Source: a virus
Lineage: Duplodnaviria; Heunggongvirae; Uroviricota; Caudoviricetes
Reading direction: 5' to 3' (one strand)
DNA length: 33,807 nt
Virus record (IMG/VR): IMGVR_UViG_2695420701_000007
Span: 1-33,807 of that record
This document shows, piece by piece, positions 3,486-31,035 of this stretch. The notes below the pieces were generated by a model. That model was not told where the DNA came from and did no database searches. It saw only the letters and a program-made list of their open reading frames with translations. Within the stretch, counting starts at the first letter, position 1; each line of letters begins with the position of its first letter. Both the position numbers and the translations under genes were made by a program.

Positions 3486-3813
3486 AGCGCATCCCCTGGC
3501 TTAACTGACCAAAATCGTAGGTATCGGCGGTAACAAGGAGCTGGCCGCGTTGCTCTTCGTCAATAAATACGGAGCCGGGAATGAGGCGTTCATCCTCCTC
3601 CAGGAGTATCACCATTTGCGTGAACAGGTCGGCCCTGAGTGTGGGGCTGTTCTCCGCAATCAGACGACAGGGCAGACCACTTTCAATCAGGGCGTGAATC
3701 ATGTCCTGAGCAATACTCTGGCGGTTGTCACACAAGACCGGCTCACTGGCGGAGTTGAACGTAAGATCGCCGTCAGTAATGAGCAGGTCGATATAAAGTG
3801 ATTTCGTACTCAT
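3475..3813 (-). CDS. Small baseplate protein, gpW/gp25-like by position (112 aa)
   Basis: Small acidic protein directly after the tape measure and directly before the J-like gene. Assignment is positional. Confidence 0.4.
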   Translation of the reverse strand: MSTKSLYIDLLITDGDLTFNSASEPVLCDNRQSIAQDMIHALIESGLPCRLIAENSPTLRADLFTQMVILLEEDERLIPGSVFIDEEQRGQLLVTADTYDFGQLSQGMRYAE

Positions 3814-3816
3814 TTG

Positions 3817-5898
3817 TCACCCCGCTGCCAGTTCGCTGTATTCCGCCAGTTGTCCCGGTGTCGCCAGGGTGTCAACGTGCAGTGTGATATCCTGCTTAAC
3901 GTTGTTATTGGTGACTTTGTCGCCCCGGTTGTTGCTTATCTGGTGACTTACCGGCCCGCCCTGGATGGCGGCGCTACGGTTGCCAGTGATAAGCTCCGGG
4001 GCGGGTGTCGGTGCGACGGTCTGTTGTGCGGTGCTGATATTGACACCGGGGATTTTGTTGAGCTTCTCTGCTATCCAGTTCCATGTCCCGGTAAAGGCGC
4101 TCTTAATGGAATCCCATATGCCGTCAAAGAGCTTGCCAATTCCAGCTGTGATATTGCCGAATGTGTCGGCCAGCGAGAAATTTTTAAACCAGTTCGTCAG
4201 ATTGTCCCATCCGGCTTTAATGCTGTTCCATGCATCATCAAACCAGCCCACCACAGCGTTAATGACTTTTAGCAGGGCACTGAAAGCTTCCGTGTCCATG
4301 ATGGCGGCTTTAATACTGTCCCAGTATTTGATAGCCAGACAGATCCCTACGGCAAGTGCGGCAATGGCGAGAATAATCAGGGTTATGGGACTTATCAGGA
4401 GTTGAAGCGCACCGCCTGCGAATGCCGTCGCCACGCCCCACAGGCGCATTGCAACCGCGCCCGCACGTAACACTACGTTCCAGGCTACGATCGCTGCTTT
4501 ACAGATCCCTGCCCAAAGAGCGACCAGCTTTGACCACACCCAGACGGCTTTTTCCTGAATCCATAGCCCCATCAGGCCAAGACGGGTTGAAAGCAGGGAG
4601 GGGCGTAATAAATCCAGGGTGAAGATTAGTCCTTTCCATGCGCCTTTCAGCACGCCAGCAATTCCGCTGAGCCCGGTCATGATAAAGCCGAAGGCCCCCA
4701 TCGTGATACTGGCAAGCGCCCCTGCTGCGGCAAAGGCGAGGGTCATTGCAGTGATATATCCCAGCCAGCGGGCAATATTGGGGAACGTATCCAGCCATTT
4801 CATGAAGGCTTTCCCGCCAGTGATGATTTTTTGCAGGAACGGGGCAAAGACGGGATCGAGCCGCAGACCGATACTGACGCGAACCTGCTCCAGTAAAGAA
4901 TTAACCTGATCCCACGGGTCAACCATCTTTTTCGCCATTTCGATGGCTTTATCCATGCCTTTGATGTTACCTAATGTATTGATGTTCCGTTTCAGCCCGT
5001 CAACATCTCCGGCCAGTAGTTTAATCATGGACACCGCTTCATCGCTGCCAAAGGCTTTTTTCAGCAGGTCTGCATCTGCCACTTTTGACAGATCACCAAA
5101 CTTTCCTTTAATCAGATCGATGATGCCGGTAATGCTTCTGGCACTGCCGTCCCGGTTGGTAAAGTTCAGCCCCAGCACTTTTTGCGCATTCCCAATCCCC
5201 GCCAGGAATGATTTATATTTGGTTCCCGCCTCGCTGCCTGACATGGTGGACTGGAGCTGTCCCAGTACGGCGAACTGTTCAGCGGCAGATACCTTCATTG
5301 CCTGCGCGTTGGCACCCAGCGCAGTAAAGGCAGCAGACATTTCATTACCGGTAGTTTTGAACACCTGAACGGCGGTTGCGGTCTGCCCGGCAATTTGTTC
5401 AACCCACTGCGTGCGCCCCATCTTCTCTGCGGTATTTTTAAAAACACCGTACATGGTGCCCATATAGTTAGTAATGGTGGCCGTGTCTGATTTGGTGGCT
5501 TTGGCGAGAATGGCGGATGCTTCAGTAAATTTTGGCAGTTCATCGCCCTGAAGTCCTGCGATGGCGGACTGGATATCGTAGGCGCTGCGGACGAAATTGC
5601 TGGCGCTTTCGCCGTAGTTAATGGCAAACGTCTGTGAAGTTTTACGCAGCTGATCGAGTGTTTTATTTGCCACATCCAGCGAGCTGACTTCGGCCAGCGC
5701 GGCTTCCATGTCGCGGGCGGGGTTGACCAGTCCTTTTATTCCCTGAGCAGCACCCCATAACCCGGCCACACCAAAACCGAGACGTTTAAAGTCGGCTGTT
5801 GCCTTGTCAGCAAATCCGGTCACAGCCGATTGCGCCTGTTTTAAGGGTCTCGTCAGCTTATCAACCAGACTTAGCGTAAAATCAAGTTCAGCAGCCAT
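3817..5898 (-). CDS. Tail tape measure protein (693 aa)
   Basis: Long Ala/Gly/Leu-rich protein with a central block of hydrophobic segments (…ITAMTLAFAAAGALASITMGAFGFIMTGLSGIAGVL…). Its ATG overlaps the stop of the frameshifted chaperone product (TAATG at 5896-5900). Confidence 0.85.
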   Translation of the reverse strand: MAAELDFTLSLVDKLTRPLKQAQSAVTGFADKATADFKRLGFGVAGLWGAAQGIKGLVNPARDMEAALAEVSSLDVANKTLDQLRKTSQTFAINYGESASNFVRSAYDIQSAIAGLQGDELPKFTEASAILAKATKSDTATITNYMGTMYGVFKNTAEKMGRTQWVEQIAGQTATAVQVFKTTGNEMSAAFTALGANAQAMKVSAAEQFAVLGQLQSTMSGSEAGTKYKSFLAGIGNAQKVLGLNFTNRDGSARSITGIIDLIKGKFGDLSKVADADLLKKAFGSDEAVSMIKLLAGDVDGLKRNINTLGNIKGMDKAIEMAKKMVDPWDQVNSLLEQVRVSIGLRLDPVFAPFLQKIITGGKAFMKWLDTFPNIARWLGYITAMTLAFAAAGALASITMGAFGFIMTGLSGIAGVLKGAWKGLIFTLDLLRPSLLSTRLGLMGLWIQEKAVWVWSKLVALWAGICKAAIVAWNVVLRAGAVAMRLWGVATAFAGGALQLLISPITLIILAIAALAVGICLAIKYWDSIKAAIMDTEAFSALLKVINAVVGWFDDAWNSIKAGWDNLTNWFKNFSLADTFGNITAGIGKLFDGIWDSIKSAFTGTWNWIAEKLNKIPGVNISTAQQTVAPTPAPELITGNRSAAIQGGPVSHQISNNRGDKVTNNNVKQDITLHVDTLATPGQLAEYSELAAG

Positions 5899-17438: not shown

Positions 17439-17957
17439 TTATTCGAAGCTGGCAAGAATCTGTTCTCGAACAGAAGATTTCATCGTTAACCCACGATCCA
17501 GGAAAAATTGGAAATGCATTAAGGCTTGTTGTTTGTGGATAAATCTCCTGCGCACAGCCTCCTGGAGTAGCCCTCCGTGGCGGGCGGCTTTTACACCGCG
17601 TTCCGCACACGTTTTATAAACCGCATTATCCGCCGAAAGACATGTTGCATCATGTATTCTCGCGTTAACAACGCAGCTTATGTCCGCATACTTCAATGCT
17701 CTCCTGCGATTTTTTATCTCAGCCATTTCAATAAAATGTTCAGGTTCGTAATCATTGGTGAAATTGTATGGAAGTTGCAGGCGTGTAAGCTGTTCCTGAA
17801 CATCAAGATTGTATTTAGCTTTTAGTTCCTCGCAGACATAGGGGTCAATCCACACACCACCCGGGTAAATTTGCCAGATAAGATCTAAGCATTTACCTTC
17901 GTAAAAATCAGACAGTACATTCGTATCGATAACACATCTGGGGCATTCAAACGGCAT
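17439..17957 (-). CDS. PIN-domain nuclease (putative toxin/effector, 172 aa)
   Basis: Start set at ATG 17957 (AGGAGG 9 nt upstream), overlapping the upstream gene by 11 nt. It has the PIN hallmarks CVIDTNVLSDF (first Asp), VCEELK (Glu) and ATCLSADNAVYKTCAERG (distal Asp), plus a helical C-terminal extension. Confidence 0.75.
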   Translation of the reverse strand: MPFECPRCVIDTNVLSDFYEGKCLDLIWQIYPGGVWIDPYVCEELKAKYNLDVQEQLTRLQLPYNFTNDYEPEHFIEMAEIKNRRRALKYADISCVVNARIHDATCLSADNAVYKTCAERGVKAARHGGLLQEAVRRRFIHKQQALMHFQFFLDRGLTMKSSVREQILASFE

Positions 17958-19092
17958 CCTCTCCGGCCTCCTGTTCGTCGTACCATTCATCCAGAAGATT
18001 GCTGAGAGCTTTTCTGTCTAATTCTAAAAGTTCAGATATGAAGGTTTCCGACGCGGAACCGGCTTCCCATGCTTTACGCGATAAGACGGTTAGGCGACCT
18101 TTATAATTTAGTGCTTCCCTTATGGGATTTGGCTCGTGTCTCTTCCAGCCTTTACGATTGGCGGTTGCCCATAGGTATCTAGTGTTTTGCTGATTAATTA
18201 AATTACATTTACTAAGACGCTCAATGATGCAAGTGGCTGATACTCTGAAAATGCTTTTTAGTCTAAGGACGGTTTCCTCATACGCCCATCCACCACCTTG
18301 CATGACGAATTGTTTTCGCAACGCGCTTTCTGGTACCAAAAAACAAGCAGCAAAGTGATTAGCAACTTTTTCTTCCGGTGAAATTGCTTTGCCATTAGTT
18401 TTATAGCTTTTAGCAGGGCCATCATACTCATCACGGTGGAAGATAAGATGAGCATATTCATGGCAAATACTGAAGATTTGACGTTCTATTGAAATGCTGT
18501 CGTGAACATTTACATAAATCGCGGTACCGTATTTGTTCGAAAACGCAGAAAATCCGAATACCATCCCTTTATCGGTTTCCTCGCGATTGAACGGGATCAC
18601 TCGAATATCCGATGCTTCCAAAATGGCTACAATGTCACCAACGCAAGTAGCGTTTCCCATACCAAGACGGAAACGTTCTTCCATAGCCTTATCTTCGACT
18701 CTTCGCAAATCTTCTGCTTTGGCGGTAAAAACAGGCATTGAGTTAGGAAGATCTTCTGGCAAATTAGCATCAGCAGCTTCCTCAATTGCATTGATATTTT
18801 TTAACTTTTCAATCAACTCATTGCGAAGTCTGGCATCCAACAAATCCGGACTATCTGCTCGCATTGCAAAACGAAACTCGCCATCATCTTGCTCATAAAA
18901 ATACCCGACAGGCTTATCGAAAATCTTGCAGAGCATGATGAGTTGGGTAACGCTTGGGACGCCTAGCGCCTGCTCAAACTTACTGTAGGTTTGACGAACA
19001 ACACCGATCGCATCTGCGACGGCGCTTGCACTCATTCCTGCGTCGTTTCTGGCCTGAACCAAGCGTTCTGCTATACGCTGTTGAATGTTCAT
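17947..19092 (-). CDS. HTH-XRE / ImmA-IrrE (M78-type) zinc metallopeptidase fusion protein (381 aa)
   Basis: N-terminal XRE helix-turn-helix (RLVQARNDAGMSASAVADAIGVVRQTYSKFEQALGVPSVTQLIMLCKIF). HExxH motif (SICHEYAHLIFH) followed by EEKVANHFAACFLVP, the usual third-ligand segment of ImmA/IrrE peptidases. Helical C-terminal ~80 aa with an acidic tail. Confidence 0.85.
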   Translation of the reverse strand: MNIQQRIAERLVQARNDAGMSASAVADAIGVVRQTYSKFEQALGVPSVTQLIMLCKIFDKPVGYFYEQDDGEFRFAMRADSPDLLDARLRNELIEKLKNINAIEEAADANLPEDLPNSMPVFTAKAEDLRRVEDKAMEERFRLGMGNATCVGDIVAILEASDIRVIPFNREETDKGMVFGFSAFSNKYGTAIYVNVHDSISIERQIFSICHEYAHLIFHRDEYDGPAKSYKTNGKAISPEEKVANHFAACFLVPESALRKQFVMQGGGWAYEETVLRLKSIFRVSATCIIERLSKCNLINQQNTRYLWATANRKGWKRHEPNPIREALNYKGRLTVLSRKAWEAGSASETFISELLELDRKALSNLLDEWYDEQEAGEDAV

Positions 19093-19709: not shown

Positions 19710-20137
19710 TGTGAATCTCTCCTGTGTTGTGCCGGTCTGGCGCATGAATGGCGCTGCGGTAAAAAGACCCTTTGCGTCAGTGCGGCCTTGCGATTGACGG
19801 CAGTCAGCGTTCTGGCCAGCGCGACATTGTGTTTGCGGGTCTGCTCTTCGTGGTACTTCTGCATGATTTTCCCGGCCGGCGTGAGTGGTTCCGGCTCTTC
19901 CGGTGAACGGCGCGGACGAACGGCAACTATCCAGCTCTGATATTCACTGCCCGGTCGCCTGTTAAGTATGTCGGTGATGGTGGTTGTGGTGGTGCGATCG
20001 GGGCTGGCCACCGTGATTTCCAGTTCGTCCCCGGGCTGTGGTCTTGTGGCTACGCCTCTCAGTGTCATGGCTGGCGTGCGCTGGCGCATAACGGCGTCGA
20101 ACTGCTGACGCTGCATGGTGCAGTGAAATCGCGTCAT
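19706..20137 (-). CDS. Hypothetical protein (143 aa)
   Basis: The ATG overlaps the gpA-like stop (ATGA). The N-terminus is weakly ASCH-like (…QQFDAVMRQRTPAMTLRG…PGDELEI); this is not secure. Confidence 0.55.
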   Translation of the reverse strand: MTRFHCTMQRQQFDAVMRQRTPAMTLRGVATRPQPGDELEITVASPDRTTTTTITDILNRRPGSEYQSWIVAVRPRRSPEEPEPLTPAGKIMQKYHEEQTRKHNVALARTLTAVNRKAALTQRVFLPQRHSCARPAQHRRDSQ

Positions 20138-22626
20138 GATCTTACCTCCGCTGACGACTCCTGTGTGATGACGATGCGGCGGGTTGTGGCGCTCCAGTAC
20201 GCGATACGCCCGTCGCCCGGGCGAACGCGGGCACCGTTACTCACGGAAATAATGGCTGCGTCAGGCAGCTGCACACCCAGCGCGTCGAGTTCGCGGGTGA
20301 TTTGTGCGATGGTCGTGGTGTCGACAGGCACGACAACCTCCACCCTGACAGGGGTGTCTGATGCTGGTCTGGTGTTATTTTGTCCGGTATCCGTGGCGGG
20401 CGGCTGATTTTTAAGCTGTCTGATGAGCTGTTTCCGCTCGTAATGGCTCAATCCCTGCAACCATTGTGTCAGGCCATTTTCCGGAAGTGTCAGACGTTTC
20501 TCCTGCTGCCTGTTTTCTGTGCCGGTTCCGGCTGTTTTTTCGTCGCCGGGACAGTTATTGCCACGAGTCCAAGGGGCGGCAGGGCCGCCCTGAAGGTCAA
20601 AACCATTTTCGCGGGCGCTGTCTTCCGCTTCCGGTTTACGTCTTACCAGCTTCCAGTTGTCCGGATGCGTGCACACACGGGAGGATTCCCCGATGAGTGG
20701 CGACCAGATCCCGTAAATCTGTACGCTCTGTTCGCCGTAATCGTTCAGCTCATCTGCGAGGTCGTAGGCGGTGCGAATCAGGTAGTCCTTACGTGGAACA
20801 AGTACGCCGCCCTGTTTCTCTATGTAGGTGGCAAAACACCCGGCATCAGCGGCAGCAAGAACCGCATCCATTGCGTCATCCTTCAGCCGTTGCGGGCCTT
20901 CCGGGTTGCGTGCCATCTGGCTGGCAAGGCGGCGCAGTTCACGCCATACCTGACGGGAGGGGATGCCAAAGAACTGGAACTGGCGGACCCGGTGAAGGCG
21001 CGCCCAGCCGATGGCGCGTTCCACGCTTTCTGCCATCGTCTTTCCTGATTCGTCGTCGATGCGCGGTTTGCCTGTTTTCGGGTCAATGCCATCCACGGCG
21101 TGGCTGTCCAGGTTCTTTCCGATGTAGGTGGCGATATAGCTGGTCGGCGTACCTTTCGAACCGTCGACGTACTCCGCCTTAAAGCGCGGAGTTATGTCAT
21201 CGCCCAGCTCGTGGCGGTCTTCACGAATGGCAATATCGCGGGCGATGGTCACGATGCTGTCGATTTCTTCAGGATGTGCAAAGACCATCATATGCCAGTG
21301 CACCGTGCCGTCATGGTGAGGCTCCACCGTGCGGATGCCATACCAGCGCAGGCCCTTGCGGTCCAGTCTGTTACGAACGGCTTTAAAAAAAGTGTTAACC
21401 AGATAATCACTGGAATCGCGCATGGTAGCCCCGTTCCATTTGGGGTTCGGATGACCGTTCTCCGTTGTTGCGTGGTATTTTGACGGGCAGGTGACAGTCA
21501 GAAACACCGCTTTGTCGCCACGGGATTCGGCTATAAGTTCCGCCCCTTTCATGGTGGCCATCATTTCTGCCTTACGGTGAACCGGGTTACTTACTCCCGC
21601 GTAATACACTGTCTCGAGATCAATCGTGAACCCGTCTTCATTTTCCAGCATGAAACTTTTCAGGAAATCGCGTGTTTTCTCGCGCTGTGCGCGAAACTCA
21701 CTTAACGCGTCCTGGCTCAGATAGGGCGATGTTTTTCTGGAAACCAGACAGGCGGCGCGGAGTTGTTCTTCTCTCCACTCGCAACGTAAAAGCCACAGTT
21801 TGCGTTTCCACCAGTCCGCACAGGTCAGGCGAAGGATTGCGCCCGGCAGCAGTTCCGTGTCCGGTTCGTTCTTGCGGTCTTTGTCTGTTGTCAGCGCGTC
21901 ATAATGTGGAGGCATGGCGTGCAGGTGTAGCGCCATGCGGGCCAGCATCTGATACGCCTTCAGTGCCACCTCCATGGTCAGCTCGCCATCTCTGGCACCG
22001 AAACCATCACAGAGTGTTTCAAAGGAGCTGCTGAACATTGCCGCCGTCATGGTGCCCAGCGTCTGTATCTGGTGCTTGTTAAGCTGCGGCAGGTACAGCA
22101 AATCGTCCAGGCGTTCGCGTCCGGCAAGGGCGCGATAACCCGGTGTCAGCCAGCGGCTGTCGGTGCGGTCCAGTCGTTCGAATATTTTGCGCAGGGTTCC
22201 GCGCGCGTAGCCCTCTGATGGTCGACTCTTTTTGCCTTTCTGGCGGTCAGATTCCTGCTTCTTACGTAAAAAAGAGAGGCGGCGGCTCAGAGGTTCACGC
22301 AGATAAACAGGTAGCGCCTTTAGTGTGACAAATGCACGGGCCACCGGGTCTTGTTCTGTTGCCTGGCGCTTGCTGATGATGCTTTGTGTTACCTTCTCGC
22401 GCCGTTCGTCCTCATCGAGGGCGACCATGAGTTTTTTACCCATGTCTGACTGCACAAAAAAGGCTTCTTCTTCCGCCTCCCTGACTTCCTGTGCTTTCAG
22501 ATCTGCTTCCTGGTAGTAGCGTATGGCCTGTTGCAACGGGGTTTCAGGCGTAGGCTGATACTTCGCAAATGTGGCTGGGTCAATGGCCTGCCGTGGTTCG
22601 TTCCAGTCCCAGGTAAATTCACTCAT
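20134..22626 (-). CDS. Replication initiation endonuclease (P2 gpA-like, 830 aa)
   Basis: HUH-type motif (TVEPHHDGTVHWHMMVF). Size and position match P2 gpA. Start set at ATG 22626, which overlaps the upstream stop (ATGA). Confidence 0.85.
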   Translation of the reverse strand: MSEFTWDWNEPRQAIDPATFAKYQPTPETPLQQAIRYYQEADLKAQEVREAEEEAFFVQSDMGKKLMVALDEDERREKVTQSIISKRQATEQDPVARAFVTLKALPVYLREPLSRRLSFLRKKQESDRQKGKKSRPSEGYARGTLRKIFERLDRTDSRWLTPGYRALAGRERLDDLLYLPQLNKHQIQTLGTMTAAMFSSSFETLCDGFGARDGELTMEVALKAYQMLARMALHLHAMPPHYDALTTDKDRKNEPDTELLPGAILRLTCADWWKRKLWLLRCEWREEQLRAACLVSRKTSPYLSQDALSEFRAQREKTRDFLKSFMLENEDGFTIDLETVYYAGVSNPVHRKAEMMATMKGAELIAESRGDKAVFLTVTCPSKYHATTENGHPNPKWNGATMRDSSDYLVNTFFKAVRNRLDRKGLRWYGIRTVEPHHDGTVHWHMMVFAHPEEIDSIVTIARDIAIREDRHELGDDITPRFKAEYVDGSKGTPTSYIATYIGKNLDSHAVDGIDPKTGKPRIDDESGKTMAESVERAIGWARLHRVRQFQFFGIPSRQVWRELRRLASQMARNPEGPQRLKDDAMDAVLAAADAGCFATYIEKQGGVLVPRKDYLIRTAYDLADELNDYGEQSVQIYGIWSPLIGESSRVCTHPDNWKLVRRKPEAEDSARENGFDLQGGPAAPWTRGNNCPGDEKTAGTGTENRQQEKRLTLPENGLTQWLQGLSHYERKQLIRQLKNQPPATDTGQNNTRPASDTPVRVEVVVPVDTTTIAQITRELDALGVQLPDAAIISVSNGARVRPGDGRIAYWSATTRRIVITQESSAEVRS

Positions 22627-23012
22627 GGTTGACACCCTGTCACGCGTTGCCATTCCTGCGAGAAGAGGGCAGAAAGACGGTTAAACTCAGTGGTGTATTC
22701 ACTCAGCGAGGCACACCCGCCAGCGGTGCGATGCGCCAGCATTGCTGCAAACACGGAGGCAGGGGAGTTGTAATACGCCAGCAGGGAGTCGCCGTGTGGT
22801 GTCAGGGTGTACAGGGCCAGACCGTGTGGTGTGAAGTCCACGCGGTAACAGTCGTCCACGATGAAATAAAGGGGGCCTGCGTTCTCTGGTTTTGTGGTGC
22901 GAGCCTGGCTGGCGCGGGCACGGAGATAGAAATCAAACATTGCCTGAAGTTTTGGAGCCAGACGGGTGTCCTGTGTGCGCACCCATTTTACGAAGTCATG
23001 ACGGTCAATCAT
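22623..23012 (-). CDS. Hypothetical protein (129 aa)
   Basis: ORF with GAGG 7 nt upstream of the ATG. Translationally coupled to the gpA-like gene. Confidence 0.6.
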   Translation of the reverse strand: MIDRHDFVKWVRTQDTRLAPKLQAMFDFYLRARASQARTTKPENAGPLYFIVDDCYRVDFTPHGLALYTLTPHGDSLLAYYNSPASVFAAMLAHRTAGGCASLSEYTTEFNRLSALFSQEWQRVTGCQP

Positions 23013-27817: not shown

Positions 27818-28021
27818 TTAGCTGTTAGCCAAAGCGTCTTTTAACATCGCCACAAGGTTTACTTCAGGCTTTTCCATTTTGGCGCGTTTGGGGCGGATAA
27901 TAATTCGACCGTCAGCCAACATCTTTTTGCATGTATTAAGAGGGATACCTGTTATCTCTGCATATTTCTGCAGGGATACATAGGGGGCATTCACATTGAT
28001 ATTGATGGTTATACCTGACAT
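27818..28021 (-). CDS. Cox/excisionase-like small HTH protein (67 aa)
   Basis: YVSLQKYAEITGIPLNTCKKMLADGRIIIRP parallels the P2 Cox segment IPYQEFAKLIGKSTGAVRRMIDKGKLPV (from memory). It is the second gene of the early operon. Confidence 0.5.
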   Translation of the reverse strand: MSGITININVNAPYVSLQKYAEITGIPLNTCKKMLADGRIIIRPKRAKMEKPEVNLVAMLKDALANS

Positions 28022-28037
28022 CCCACTAACCTCCTGA

Positions 28038-28244
28038 TCAGGAAGATTTGTTTTGTTCTTTCTGGGTTAGCTCTAGGCCGCGAAGGAAGATCATGCGCGC
28101 CATGTTAGAGGATGAGCGTTGTTCTTTAGCTGCCATCTCATCAATAAAGGCGCGCTCCTCCGCTGACAGTCGAAGTGCCAGTCTTTGACCTGTGGCGGTG
28201 TTACGCGGAATGCGTGACTTGGTGTCGTGACTAACTTGATTCAT
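28038..28244 (-). CDS. Ribbon-helix-helix (Arc/CopG-like) regulator, first early gene (68 aa)
   Basis: RLALRLSAEERAFIDEMAAKEQRSSSNMARMIFLRGLE fits the RHH beta-alpha-alpha pattern. The gene is divergent from the repressor gene. Confidence 0.6.
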   Translation of the reverse strand: MNQVSHDTKSRIPRNTATGQRLALRLSAEERAFIDEMAAKEQRSSSNMARMIFLRGLELTQKEQNKSS

Positions 28245-28281: not shown

Positions 28282-28310
28282 ACTTTAGGGAACAAAACTT
28301 CCTATGTCAA
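28282..28310 (-). promoter_or_regulatory. Early lytic promoter (near-consensus)
   Basis: On the minus strand: TTGACA (28310-28305), exactly 17 nt of spacer, then TAAAGT (28287-28282). The -35 overlaps the repressor ATG (28304-28306). Confidence 0.6.
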
Positions 28311-28717
28311 CAGAAAAAGAGGAACTAAGCGTCATTATTGGCCGTCGATTACGGGAGGAGCGAGAGAAAATTGGCATGACCCAAGATGATATGGCGTCGA
28401 TTTTTGAAGTTTCTACAAAGACTTGGGGGAAGTATGAAAGAGGGGTGACTACACCGGATGCAGTTATGTTGAATCTCTTGGGAGGGCGCTGCGGAGTAGA
28501 TGTCTATTACATACTTTCTGGTAGTCGTGCACATGGCATCCCTAATGCTACTGAAGATGAGATTGAGCTAATTAAAATATATCGTTCTGCACCTTTGGCT
28601 GTTAAGGCGGCAGCTTTGGCAGCCTTGACTGCTGGTAGTTTGTCTCTAGGTACAATAAGAGCTTCTGGCAAAGGCCATCGTATTGCAGGTCGTGACTATA
28701 ACGAAACGAAGGGTTAG
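28304..28717 (+). CDS. CI-like immunity repressor (XRE HTH, 137 aa)
   Basis: HTH segment (IGRRLREEREKIGMTQDDMASIFEVSTKTWGKYERGVTTPDAVMLNLL). Divergent from the early operon and reads toward int, as P2 C does. Confidence 0.75.
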   Translation: MSTEKEELSVIIGRRLREEREKIGMTQDDMASIFEVSTKTWGKYERGVTTPDAVMLNLLGGRCGVDVYYILSGSRAHGIPNATEDEIELIKIYRSAPLAVKAAALAALTAGSLSLGTIRASGKGHRIAGRDYNETKG

Positions 28718-28735
28718 TGATAGTAGGGAGGTGAC

Positions 28736-29383
28736 ATGGCTGTCAACTCAAACGGTTCAGACAATCGCGTTTCTGGGCGTGATTACCACGAAAAGAACAT
28801 TCGGATAGAGCGGTATGATGGTCGTCATACAGTCAACATTGCAATCCCTTCCTGTGGGGCTGATGAGCGCCCATTAGTCAAGGCTCAGCGCCATCAACTG
28901 AAGTTGTTGGTTGATAAGATTGTTGATGTCAGCAAGGAAGAATCGTTTGTTGTCTGGCGTAAACTTCATGCTGAAATCGGTGTTGATAGCATCGATAAGA
29001 TGACGGTGAATCAGTATCCAACCGCAATTAGCTTCCTCAATGCGATGCTTGACCGACATAAAGAGCGCGACGCCTGCAAATCACTTGTAAGTCTCCTTCT
29101 TCGCAATAGTGAGAATAATGAAGCTAGACAAAAACTTCTTCGATATTGTCATATCAATTTTGGAACAGGGCGCTTAAATGATCTTACTCGCTCTCAGCTT
29201 CAGATGGCTCTTTCATGGTTAGATCAGCAAACAACAGACTGTGAAAATAATTTGCCCTCAGATAATTCTAAATTTGTCGATAAACAATCGCGATTAGTGT
29301 TTCAGCAAATAATTAAAACATATCCAAAAGAAATGGGGGTATGTTTTGTTATTGGTGTTTTATTAGGCATGATTCTTTTCTGA
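28736..29383 (+). CDS. Membrane-anchored protein of unknown function co-transcribed with the repressor (215 aa)
   Basis: GGGAGG RBS 18 nt after the repressor stop. C-terminal TM helix (GVCFVIGVLLGMILF). The N-terminus repeats the repressor tail motif (RVSGRDYHE versus RIAGRDYNE). Confidence 0.65.
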   Translation: MAVNSNGSDNRVSGRDYHEKNIRIERYDGRHTVNIAIPSCGADERPLVKAQRHQLKLLVDKIVDVSKEESFVVWRKLHAEIGVDSIDKMTVNQYPTAISFLNAMLDRHKERDACKSLVSLLLRNSENNEARQKLLRYCHINFGTGRLNDLTRSQLQMALSWLDQQTTDCENNLPSDNSKFVDKQSRLVFQQIIKTYPKEMGVCFVIGVLLGMILF

Positions 29384-29588: not shown

Positions 29589-29846
29589 ATGGTAACTAAT
29601 CCGCAAATTCCATTGACTGGCTTATATGTATCCAAAGTTAATCCATCTAATCGTATAGTTGTTACTGATGTTCATATTGTTTAGGATGATGACGATGAGC
29701 CAGGAGAGCTTCCTTTCTATTTGGTTACTTTTGTAAATGAGGGGGATGAGGATGATATGTTGGCTCCTTCTTGGGAGCTAGATCCTGAGGAATGGGAGCA
29801 GTTAGTTGATGAAGAGCGCTTTATGCGCGTGGAGCAACCATCTTAA
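29589..29846 (+). pseudogene. Small acidic ORF interrupted by an in-frame amber codon (29682-29684)
   Basis: MVTNPQIPLTGLYVSKVNPSNRIVVTDVHIV-TAG-DDDDEPGELPFYLVTFVNEGDEDDMLAPSWELDPEEWEQLVDEERFMRVEQPS-TAA. I checked the frame codon by codon. Confidence 0.5.
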
Positions 29847-29872: not shown

Positions 29873-30874
29873 ATGTCTGTTCGTAAATTACCTACTGGCA
29901 AATGGCTCTGTGAATGCTACCCCTACGGAGCAGCAGGAAAACGCATTCGTAAACAGTTTGTTACTAAGGGTGAGGCGCTCTCTTATGAGCGCCGTTTAAT
30001 GAACAGTAATTTGGGGAGCGAGTTTCAGGATGGTTCTGGCCCCCGCCTTTCCGAGTTGGTTGCTCGCTGGTTTGAGATGTACGGTAAGACACTGTCTTCC
30101 GGTGAAGAGCGAAGGGCTAAACTTGAGGCGATTTGCTCCCGGTTGGGGGATCCGCTTGCTTCTCAATTTGATAAAAACATGTTTGCCACCTACAGGGAAC
30201 GGCGATTATCAGGTGAATGGAATCCAAAGGGGAAGAGGAAGCTTAGCGAAGCAACCGTTAATCGTGAGCAGTCATATCTACATGCTGTTTTTGCCGAACT
30301 GAAGCGCCTTGGGGAGTGGTCTGGTGAAAACCCCTTAACTGGCATTCGCAAATTTCGTGAGGAAGAAAAGGAACTGGCGTTTCTGTATGTAGATGAGATT
30401 GAACGCCTTCTGATTGCGTGTGATGAGTCACGGAATAAAGATTTGGGGGTTGTTGTCCGTATTGGGCTTGCGACTGGTGCTCGGTGGAGTGAAGCAGAAG
30501 GATTAAAGCAATCTCAAGTACTGCCCGGTCGAATCACATTTGTTAAAACTAAAGGAAAGAAGAACCGCACTGTACCGATTTCACCTCAATTGCAGGCTAT
30601 GCTTCCTAAAAAACGAGGAGCGCTATTTTCACCATGTTATGAGGCTTTTGACGCTGCAATTAAGAGAGCGAAGATCGAGCTTCCTGATGGGCAATTAACT
30701 CATGTGCTACGTCACACGTTTGCCAGTCATTTTATGATGCGGGGCGGAAATATTCTTGTGTTGCAAAAAATACTGGGGCATAGCGATATAAAAATGACTA
30801 TGCGTTATGCGCATTTTGCTCCAGGTCATTTAGAGGCTGCTGTTGAATTGAACCCTTTTGACAATAGAGGGTAA
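29873..30874 (+). CDS. int: Tyrosine integrase (333 aa)
   Basis: ARWSE… and HVLRHTFASHFMMRGGNILVLQKILGHSDIKMTMRYAHF give the R…HxxR…Y catalytic signature. The gene abuts the att site. Confidence 0.92.
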   Translation: MSVRKLPTGKWLCECYPYGAAGKRIRKQFVTKGEALSYERRLMNSNLGSEFQDGSGPRLSELVARWFEMYGKTLSSGEERRAKLEAICSRLGDPLASQFDKNMFATYRERRLSGEWNPKGKRKLSEATVNREQSYLHAVFAELKRLGEWSGENPLTGIRKFREEEKELAFLYVDEIERLLIACDESRNKDLGVVVRIGLATGARWSEAEGLKQSQVLPGRITFVKTKGKKNRTVPISPQLQAMLPKKRGALFSPCYEAFDAAIKRAKIELPDGQLTHVLRHTFASHFMMRGGNILVLQKILGHSDIKMTMRYAHFAPGHLEAAVELNPFDNRG

Positions 30875-30980: not shown

Positions 30981-31035
30981 TTTAAAATCCCTCGGCGTTC
31001 GCGCTGTGCGGGTTCAAGTCCCGCTCCGGGTACCA
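30981..31035 (+). tRNA. leuZ: 3' 55 nt of tRNA-Leu(UAA) (leuZ-type) = attR core; not a complete tRNA gene
   Basis: TTTAAAATCCCTCGGCGTTCGCGCTGTGCGGGTTCAAGTCCCGCTCCGGGTACCA matches leuZ from the anticodon loop to the CCA end (from memory). The upstream sequence lacks the acceptor 5' strand (GCCCGGA) and the D-arm. Confidence 0.8.

Follow-up and report, generated by a model that had tools for sequence, protein, structure and literature searches.

Flk (Fluke/RflH), a tail-anchored protein with its bulk in the cytoplasm, keeps the flagellar type III export apparatus in its early mode (PMC13344023). In the Bab/Agp system of an E. coli prophage, adjacent genes encode proteins with a matched C-terminal and N-terminal motif that act through amyloid templating (bioRxiv 10.1101/2024.11.07.622273), and amyloid signalling motifs in general are recognized by enrichment in N, Q, G, V and I, depletion of K, P and L, and beta propensity (10.1101/2020.01.06.895854). 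A survey of the switches of P2-like phages described the P2 C and 186 CI types only, plus 'less common heterogeneous regions' (PMC3448106). Here we describe a gene pair from a stretch of virus DNA of 33,807 nucleotides (nt) (IMG/VR record IMGVR_UViG_2695420701_000007, positions 1 to 33,807), called the window below, which is a P2-like (Peduoviridae, Xuanwuvirus-like) prophage of E. coli inserted beside yecA and tyrP. The gene of its immunity repressor is followed directly by a gene for a 215-residue membrane protein, here called X, which shares a domain family with Flk and begins with a head that matches the tail of the repressor. This pairing suggests an undescribed, membrane-based form of lysogeny control. 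The features on which the argument turns are:

28304..28717, plus strand: immunity repressor of 137 residues with an XRE-type helix-turn-helix (HTH) domain (Pfam HTH_19, HTH_31 and HTH_3; PHROG repressor families).
28655..28714, plus strand: C-terminal tail motif of the repressor, IRASGKGHRIAGRDYNETKG, defined by the motif pattern in homologues, with a predicted local distance difference test score (pLDDT) of ~45-50.
28715..28735, plus strand: repressor-X junction with the stop codon TAG, then TGA TAG TAG and the ribosome-binding site (RBS) GGGAGG, read from the sequence.
28736..29383, plus strand: X, a 215-residue tail-anchored membrane protein of the Flk_N family with an ATG start, assigned by profiles and AlphaFold2.
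28742..28849, plus strand: N-terminal head of X, consisting of a core, VNSNGSDNRVSGRDYHEKN (residues 3-21), and a conserved second block up to NIAIPS (residue 38).
28868..29248, plus strand: putative cytoplasmic Flk_N domain of X, residues 45-171, five helices formed by tandem duplication.
29324..29380, plus strand: C-terminal transmembrane (TM) anchor of X, PKEMGVCFVIGVLLGMILF, which contains a conserved FxxGxxxG and runs up to the stop codon.

An earlier note on this DNA had proposed that the N-terminus of X repeats the motif at the end of the repressor, and this proved sound: the repressor end IRASGKGHRIAGRDYNE and the X start VNSNGSDNRVSGRDYHE align with a Smith-Waterman score of 50, which was reached by 2 of 2000 shuffles, and the six-frame translation of the window contains only these two copies of the motif. 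Seven of 19 residues are identical between tail and head. In the DNA, the shared motif corresponds to a direct repeat of 39 nt that is 72% identical between copies; because five of the seven identical residues are encoded by different codons, selection on the motif acts on the peptide and not on the DNA. A repeat or operator at the DNA level was considered as the explanation and is contradicted by these synonymous differences.

To follow the pair beyond the window, 127 loci of the X family were gathered from genome contigs, IMG/VR and Logan contigs. Their sources include P2-like prophages from the Enterobacterales as well as transposable prophages of the Mu type, among which one is from Pseudomonas. 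In all 127, an HTH repressor open reading frame (ORF) ends just upstream of the X gene, and the last ~25 residues of the repressor resemble the first ~25 residues of X. Among 73 distinct tail/head pairs, cognate Smith-Waterman scores have a mean of 56.6 and a minimum of 35, compared with 19.2 +/- 4.1 for shuffled heads (99th percentile 32.4) and ~20 for heads of another motif class; every cognate score exceeds the 99th percentile of the shuffles. The match recurs down to 27% identity of X, and its position is constant, at the extreme C-terminus of the repressor and the extreme N-terminus of X.

The motif occurs in classes that are shared by tail and head. Class E, of P2-like enterobacterial and some Mu-like elements, has NRxAGRD[YF]xE in both proteins. 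Class M, of Mu-type elements with an rve transposase (one of them in Pseudomonas japonica), has either FHGSVGQSVAGNVTNKSGVTFNVGD or HTFxxVGQYIHGSVNQSGLTLNVGG as its tail and FHGxVGQxAAGDINNYGVSISL as its head, with the cores FHGxVGQxVAGNVTN in the tail and FHGxVGQxAAGDINN (also written FHGxVGQxxAGDINN) in the head. Two further lineages have matched motifs of their own: the tail QQFNGPVGTVTTGDVVN with the head QQFHGAVEQVAAGDIKN in locus L024 and the tail FNAPISGGEFAARDIVN with the head FNNQIHDGQFAGRDIVN in locus L025. The class E core is found in loci of 42-49% G+C and of 56-60% G+C, and class M at 54-59% G+C; since class E spans low and high G+C content and class M lies at similarly high values, motif class is not simply host-bound. 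Relative to background, the motif contains 3.2x as much N, 2.0x G and 1.25x Q, with L at 0.19x and P at 0.11x, all in keeping with the composition of amyloid signalling motifs, whereas V (1.1x), I (1.0x) and K (0.9x) depart from it.

This layout recalls that of BASS pairs (Bell/NLR; Bab/Agp, which is BASS11), in which the C-terminal end of the upstream product and the N-terminal start of the downstream product of adjacent genes share a motif of ~20-25 residues. Both kinds of motif are found in termini predicted to be disordered, are rich in N and G and poor in P and L, have short strands set apart by glycines, and are attached to different bodies, which here comprise Flk_N plus TM, Cys-rich TM, non-Flk_N and 2-TM proteins. 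Whereas BASS pairs join an NLR or other immune sensor to a pore-forming killer and their output is cell death, the proteins paired here are an XRE HTH repressor and an Flk_N membrane protein, and the likely output is transcriptional, namely the control of lysogeny. The repressor/X motif also differs in having conserved R, D and E without enrichment of V or I.

In the AlphaFold2 model of the repressor, the HTH domain (residues 1-72) is followed by helices at 84-95 and 98-114 and by the low-confidence tail (115-137). An alignment of 31 homologues (A4) is variable in the HTH part and conserved in the C-terminal part, with an invariant tail core; the best-conserved segment, made up of the tail and the helix before it, reads DExELIxxYRxAPLAVKAAALAALTAG...[IV]NVSGxGNRxAGRD[YF]xExKK, and the family consensus of the tail is [IV]N[VI]SGxGNRxAGRD[YF]xExKK. 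A strict pattern for this C-terminal end is present in 117 of 120 repressor homologues, and the remaining three are one-residue variants. No peptidase domain was detected in the repressor by Pfam scan, and the window contains no perfect LexA box and no more candidate sites than expected by chance.

X is a full-length member of phrog_5825 (1.8e-86), a family of unknown function, and Pfam PF27202 (Flk_N) is precomputed for X and all its close homologues; a Pfam-A scan lacking the PF27202 model gave only a sub-threshold DUF7032 match. The NCBIfam model of Flk (NF007987) matches residues 40-166 (2.8e-15) at 56.4 bits, where the equivalog cut-off is 353, and in a BLASTP comparison with Flk of Jejubacter calystegiae X aligns to both Flk_N repeats (1e-11 and 2e-8; 27-29% identity). 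These matches supersede the statement in the earlier note that no family could be recognized, and by profile and alignment X is an Flk_N member but not an Flk orthologue. X and the Flk of Salmonella and E. coli have in common a homologous cytoplasmic helical domain and an anchor of one C-terminal TM helix; in contrast, Flk has two Flk_N domains in ~333 residues, lacks the head and is a chromosomal flagellar regulator, whereas X has one Flk_N domain in 215 residues, bears the head and is encoded in a phage immunity operon. The X family as a whole comprises 87 clusters at 50% identity, in short phage-type forms of ~185-225 residues and long Flk-type forms of ~330-490 residues, and the G/N-rich N-terminal head is confined to the short forms.

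AlphaFold2, run with a 30-sequence alignment, modelled X with a mean pLDDT of 83.6. Residues 1-40 are of low confidence (42-57 in the head) and predicted disordered, yet the head is strongly conserved in both X alignments (A1 and A2). Five helices with pLDDT above 95 span residues 45-171; after a linker come a further helix (184-195) and the TM helix (197-214). The earlier description of one C-terminal TM helix agrees with this model and with hydropathy: among 19-residue windows, only residues 197-215 are strongly hydrophobic (Kyte-Doolittle 1.83, against at most 0.65 elsewhere). Within the FxxGxxxG of this helix, alignment A2 shows no variation at F204 and G207 and hardly any at G211, and G207 is nearly invariant also in the diverse alignment A1. 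Because this only TM helix lies at the very C-terminus, the N-terminus and Flk_N domain of X are predicted to be cytoplasmic. The two similar helix segments that had been pointed out correspond to a true internal tandem duplication of a ~50-residue unit in the Flk_N domain, the halves of which (approximately residues 56-104 and 115-165) align by hhalign with 90% probability (E 1.7e-6). Foldseek comparison of the model with BFVD gave only weak matches (best E 1.6e-3), among them an ORF6C-domain protein (4e-3). A match to phrog_245 'Ant' (1.7e-6) covers 55 residues only, an ORF6C-like helical unit from the C-terminal part of Ant-type proteins. No family in PADLOC-DB matched X at E values up to 1.

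The ORF of X, its ATG 18 nt past the repressor stop and the GGGAGG at 28726-28731 (4 nt upstream of the ATG) are all present as the earlier note had reported, and the ~1.1 kb of AT-rich DNA assigned to the interval from repressor to integrase amounts to 1155 nt between the repressor stop and the start of int at 29873, with a G+C fraction of 0.41 in X and 0.38 in the X-int spacer versus 0.52 in the prophage. A consensus scan for terminator-like sites found none in the gap from the repressor stop to X and none from X to int; the only plus-strand match in the scan lies within the repressor gene (28616-28635) and has three G-C pairs. Across the loci the gap between repressor and X is -4 to 27 nt in almost all cases. 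Because of the tight spacing, the RBS and the lack of a terminator-like site as far as X or int, expression of X in the lysogen from the repressor operon is plausible. The two genes share a reading frame in the window; a fusion by read-through or frameshift was rejected, as four consecutive in-frame stops (TAG TGA TAG TAG, 28715-28726) stand between them just before the RBS and the gaps of other loci are often not multiples of three.

X had been described as cargo inserted between repressor and integrase, and this description does not survive the comparison of loci. Besides its place behind the repressor in 127 of 127 loci, an Flk_N gene was found directly downstream in 50 of 57 loci that were searched from the repressor side, and a short distance further in three more; Mu-like loci, moreover, have X with no P2-type int beside it. 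Cargo genes stand between repressor and X in L138 and L206. In L150 (2468-3987), two different tailed repressors in tandem precede one X gene, and one of the tails has Cys in place of the conserved Arg (NRIAGCDY). Because X stays directly behind the repressor in related prophages, the variable cargo slot is the interval from X to int, not that from repressor to int. In related prophages it contains secreted proteins of 128 and 126 residues, ORFs of 244, 291 and 292 residues, or, in O157:H7, DUF2511. In the window it contains only a DUF8087 gene with a nonsense mutation.

Of 5426 complete E. coli genomes, 525 encode an X homologue; one such gene lies in the P2-like prophage of O157:H7, next to yecA. 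X homologues are also common in Klebsiella and elsewhere in the Enterobacterales, and the Mu-like prophages that have them include one from Pseudomonas japonica. Among 50,697 phage records searched by tblastn, the sole match to X is in Escherichia phage 520873 (NC_049344; L001 4001-4607), where X is an unannotated, frameshifted pseudogene, and none is a characterized isolate with an intact X. The integrase of this phage is annotated in two pieces.

The head is found on other proteins as well. Downstream of the repressor, a matching head begins a Cys-rich (CPRC) protein of 127-128 residues with a C-terminal TM helix in L193 and L197, bodies of 152-187 residues outside the Flk_N family in L157, L204 and L196, and a 169-residue protein in L205. 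In L020 (707-1003), a third small protein with two TM helices, encoded directly 3' of X, starts with the related motif STVTVVGDNNITASGDLNI, and in the protein P0184 this head-bearing 2-TM module is fused to an X-family protein, so that more than two proteins may share a head. The head thus behaves as a portable adaptor. Two further X relatives, P0145 and P0162, have a domain of ~140 residues after the TM helix that is homologous (5e-19 and 7e-18) to a lipoprotein encoded just 3' of X in L023, and some members of the X family accordingly look like one-pass transmembrane signalling proteins. The lipoprotein gene (3638-4165) belongs to the Mu-like prophage of Pseudomonas japonica and provides a Rosetta-stone link between X and a periplasmic partner.

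The rest of the switch region consists of Cox-like and Arc-like genes on the minus strand, diverging from a plus-strand series of repressor, X, DUF8087 remnant and int, the last gene of the lysogenic transcription unit:

27818-28021, minus strand: Cox-like gene, at the start of the divergent early operon (27818..28244).
28038-28244, minus strand: Arc-like gene, also at the start of this operon; the Arc-like and Cox-like genes match phrog_3431 (2.7e-27) and phrog_575 (1.2e-27).
29589..29846, plus strand: DUF8087 homologue in the X-int slot, with a premature TAG at 29682.
29873..30874, plus strand: P2-type tyrosine integrase, int (Pfam Int_N and Phage_integrase; phrog_1).

A promoter scan marked a promoter-like site on the minus strand at 28310-28282. 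The Arc-like gene is unannotated in the RefSeq records of identical prophages, in which a partial pseudo-ORF on the other strand (L002 2894-2986) is called in its place. RefSeq likewise annotates only a 41-residue C-terminal remnant of the DUF8087 gene, which is intact (85 residues) in the related E. coli prophage L003, with CTG at the site of the TAG. A secreted protein of ~126-135 residues with the motif …WYEGGTLH.ANALEW… recurs beside X in several P2-like prophages (L004 4215-4601, L014 4715-5095 and L138 2945-3352), its gene lying between repressor and X in L138. The presumed att core of the prophage is a tRNA 3' fragment: the 3' end of a tRNA gene (…GGTTCAAGTCCCGCTCCGGGTACCA) lies at ~30990-31035, 115 nt 3' of int, where ARAGORN found no complete tRNA. 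Presumably this is the duplicated att core, and the prophage integrated in the tRNA gene upstream of yecA. Elsewhere in the window, just beyond the replication gene gpA (20134-22653), a two-gene cargo (17439-19092, minus strand) encodes a 381-residue protein with HTH and Peptidase_M78 domains (ImmA/IrrE-like; PADLOC RmrA match, 3e-35), the gene of which overlaps that of a 183-residue PIN-domain protein. It falls where the published P2 defence hotspot (GpA-GpO) is described and is probably a toxin-antitoxin or defence pair.

Our tentative preference, held with slightly less than even confidence, is that X would be a membrane-anchored partner of the immunity repressor, acting as a head/tail-paired sensor for induction or for the tuning of immunity; that head and tail touch each other at all is somewhat more likely than not. 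The X head and the repressor tail would bind directly by homotypic beta-strand pairing, possibly amyloid-like, with X probably oligomeric through its GxxxG TM helix. By holding or templating the repressor at the inner membrane, X would then alter the amount of active repressor that reaches the operators. In this way X could serve as a signal-responsive antirepressor or induction sensor, conferring inducibility on a repressor that has no LexA-like cleavage domain, and the cue would be received by the Flk_N domain or, in some relatives, by the periplasmic domain. A less likely variant of the same mechanism would have X as a scaffold or stabilizer of repressor oligomers. The sensor or antirepressor role is favoured because the repressor lacks a LexA-like peptidase domain and the window lacks a perfect SOS box; because the tail is kept in essentially all homologues, as expected if regulated inactivation benefits the phage; because the N-terminal copy of the motif sits on the upstream sensing component in known matched-motif systems; and because some relatives of X have periplasmic domains.

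Several points weigh against this reading. The direction of regulation is pure inference, and an antagonist transcribed 1:1 with its target would be unusual. X is dispensable at least for prophage carriage, because it is a frameshifted pseudogene in Escherichia phage 520873. No fine covariation was found within class E, in which the core is invariant, and class M has a single head type opposite two tail subtypes; covariation exists only between a few deep classes and is inflated by the phylogenetic linkage of adjacent genes. Amyloid formation is uncertain, because the motif has charged R, D, E and K residues and no enrichment of V or I. In a stronger version of the proposal, which we consider distinctly doubtful, lysogeny control would be prion-like in at least two phage families: a membrane or envelope cue would cause the X head amyloid to template the repressor into an inactive membrane polymer, resulting in induction independent of the SOS response. 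If so, host Flk could derive from a phage protein of this kind, domesticated and now without its head.

Tail and head might instead be recognition peptides for the same third party, such as FtsH, Lon, ClpXP or a phage factor, and make no contact with each other, X being a membrane competitor or decoy that sets the turnover of the repressor as lambda CIII protects CII from FtsH. The same short, predicted-disordered terminal peptide on two proteins described as co-expressed could serve this purpose, an invariant class E core is to be expected if one conserved factor recognizes it, and class M, with a single head type for two tail subtypes, points the same way. The activity of the Mu repressor and its degradation by ClpXP are, moreover, governed by its C-terminal tail. 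We nevertheless regard a shared tag as unlikely: motif class changes jointly in both proteins between lineages, a single host factor explains no classes when the class E core occurs at both ~45% and ~58-60% G+C and class M at similarly high values, and the window has no third ORF bearing the motif. An N/G-rich, P/L-poor sequence with regularly spaced glycines also fits the usual makeup of self-pairing beta motifs better than that of known degrons. At the other extreme, the similarity might have no function and be due to chance, recent local duplication or a repeat at the DNA level, for instance an operator or a recombination junction. With 7 of 19 residues identical, one pairwise match taken alone is short, and its two copies do form a direct DNA repeat, but this explanation is effectively refuted and hardly credible given the rarity of the observed score among shuffles, the recurrence of the match in 73 distinct pairs of widely diverged X proteins, the mostly different codons of the identical residues, and the unvarying location of the motif at the two facing termini.

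The earlier note had likened X to exclusion and defence genes, and a membrane-acting abortive infection (Abi) or superinfection-exclusion protein, triggered through the motif, with sensing by the DNA-bound repressor or through its displacement when another phage enters, would account for the membrane anchor of X and for its position next to the repressor in the lysogenic operon, like that of rexAB. The C-terminal/N-terminal layout of matched motifs is that of the prophage Abi pair Bab/Agp, and a TIR-domain gene lies two genes 3' of X in L024. Yet X has no match in PADLOC, and its fold is a small helical one for protein binding, with no domain of an effector type such as a pore former or nuclease; a lone tail anchor at the very end of the protein is also unlikely to disrupt a membrane. 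Amyloid pairs carry the N-terminal motif on the sensor and not on the effector, and X is a core syntenic gene instead of one that is swapped in a hotspot, all of which makes a defence function improbable. The TIR gene of the Mu-like element L024 (3990-4862) encodes a 290-residue TIR_2-domain protein and is possible defence cargo in its own right. X might also mimic Flk and act on the flagellar type III export gate of the host, altering motility or assembly as a form of lysogenic conversion, with the head incidental. Its homology to both Flk_N repeats and its identical tail-anchored topology point in this direction, as does the restraint by Flk of the flagellar secretion-specificity switch; Flk was tested against FlhA-C by two-hybrid assay (PMC13344023). 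However, identity to Flk is only 27-29% and the 56-bit score is far under the cut-off of 353, true Flk proteins lack the head motif, and relatives of X are found in a prophage of Pseudomonas japonica as well as in Mu-like elements that range from 31% to 63% G+C. Mimicry of Flk would also leave the conserved head/tail match unexplained, and is very improbable.

If X is a sensor that pairs with the repressor, it would resemble several regulators in principle but not in descent. Like the antirepressors P22 Ant, 186 Tum, P4 epsilon and CTXphi RstC, it would be a small phage protein that binds an immunity repressor and alters its activity; RstC acts by aggregating RstR. The antirepressors, however, are under SOS or lytic control, whereas X is membrane-anchored, is encoded in the repressor operon and would achieve recognition via a matched terminal peptide, and it has no significant homology to any characterized antirepressor, only the weak profile similarity to phrog_245. 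Membrane proteins that keep a DNA-binding regulator off DNA until a cue arrives include PtsG, which acts on Mlc, and anti-sigma factors such as RseA. The logic of sequestration would be the same, and P0145 and P0162, with their periplasmic domain, have the layout of one-pass sensors; but neither PtsG nor RseA is homologous to X, and the tether here would be a homotypic pair of peptides. With lambda rexAB, P22 sieB and P2 old/tin/fun, X shares expected expression in the lysogen from the immunity region. It has no homology to any of these, and it is the conserved syntenic partner of one repressor family instead of a swappable moron.

The repressor-X switch is a third, widespread kind of P2-like switch, and no publication on the repressor-X pair was found in the literature searched, which included Flk and prophages, amyloid and repressors, and CP-933T. 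If head and tail do pair, induction of the prophage could respond to the condition of the membrane or envelope and not to DNA damage, and this would be the first case of signalling by matched terminal motifs for gene regulation rather than cell death. A peptide of ~20 residues appears to plug different sensors into different repressors, and the rule that the tail of the repressor is the head of the next protein provides a simple search key for further modules.

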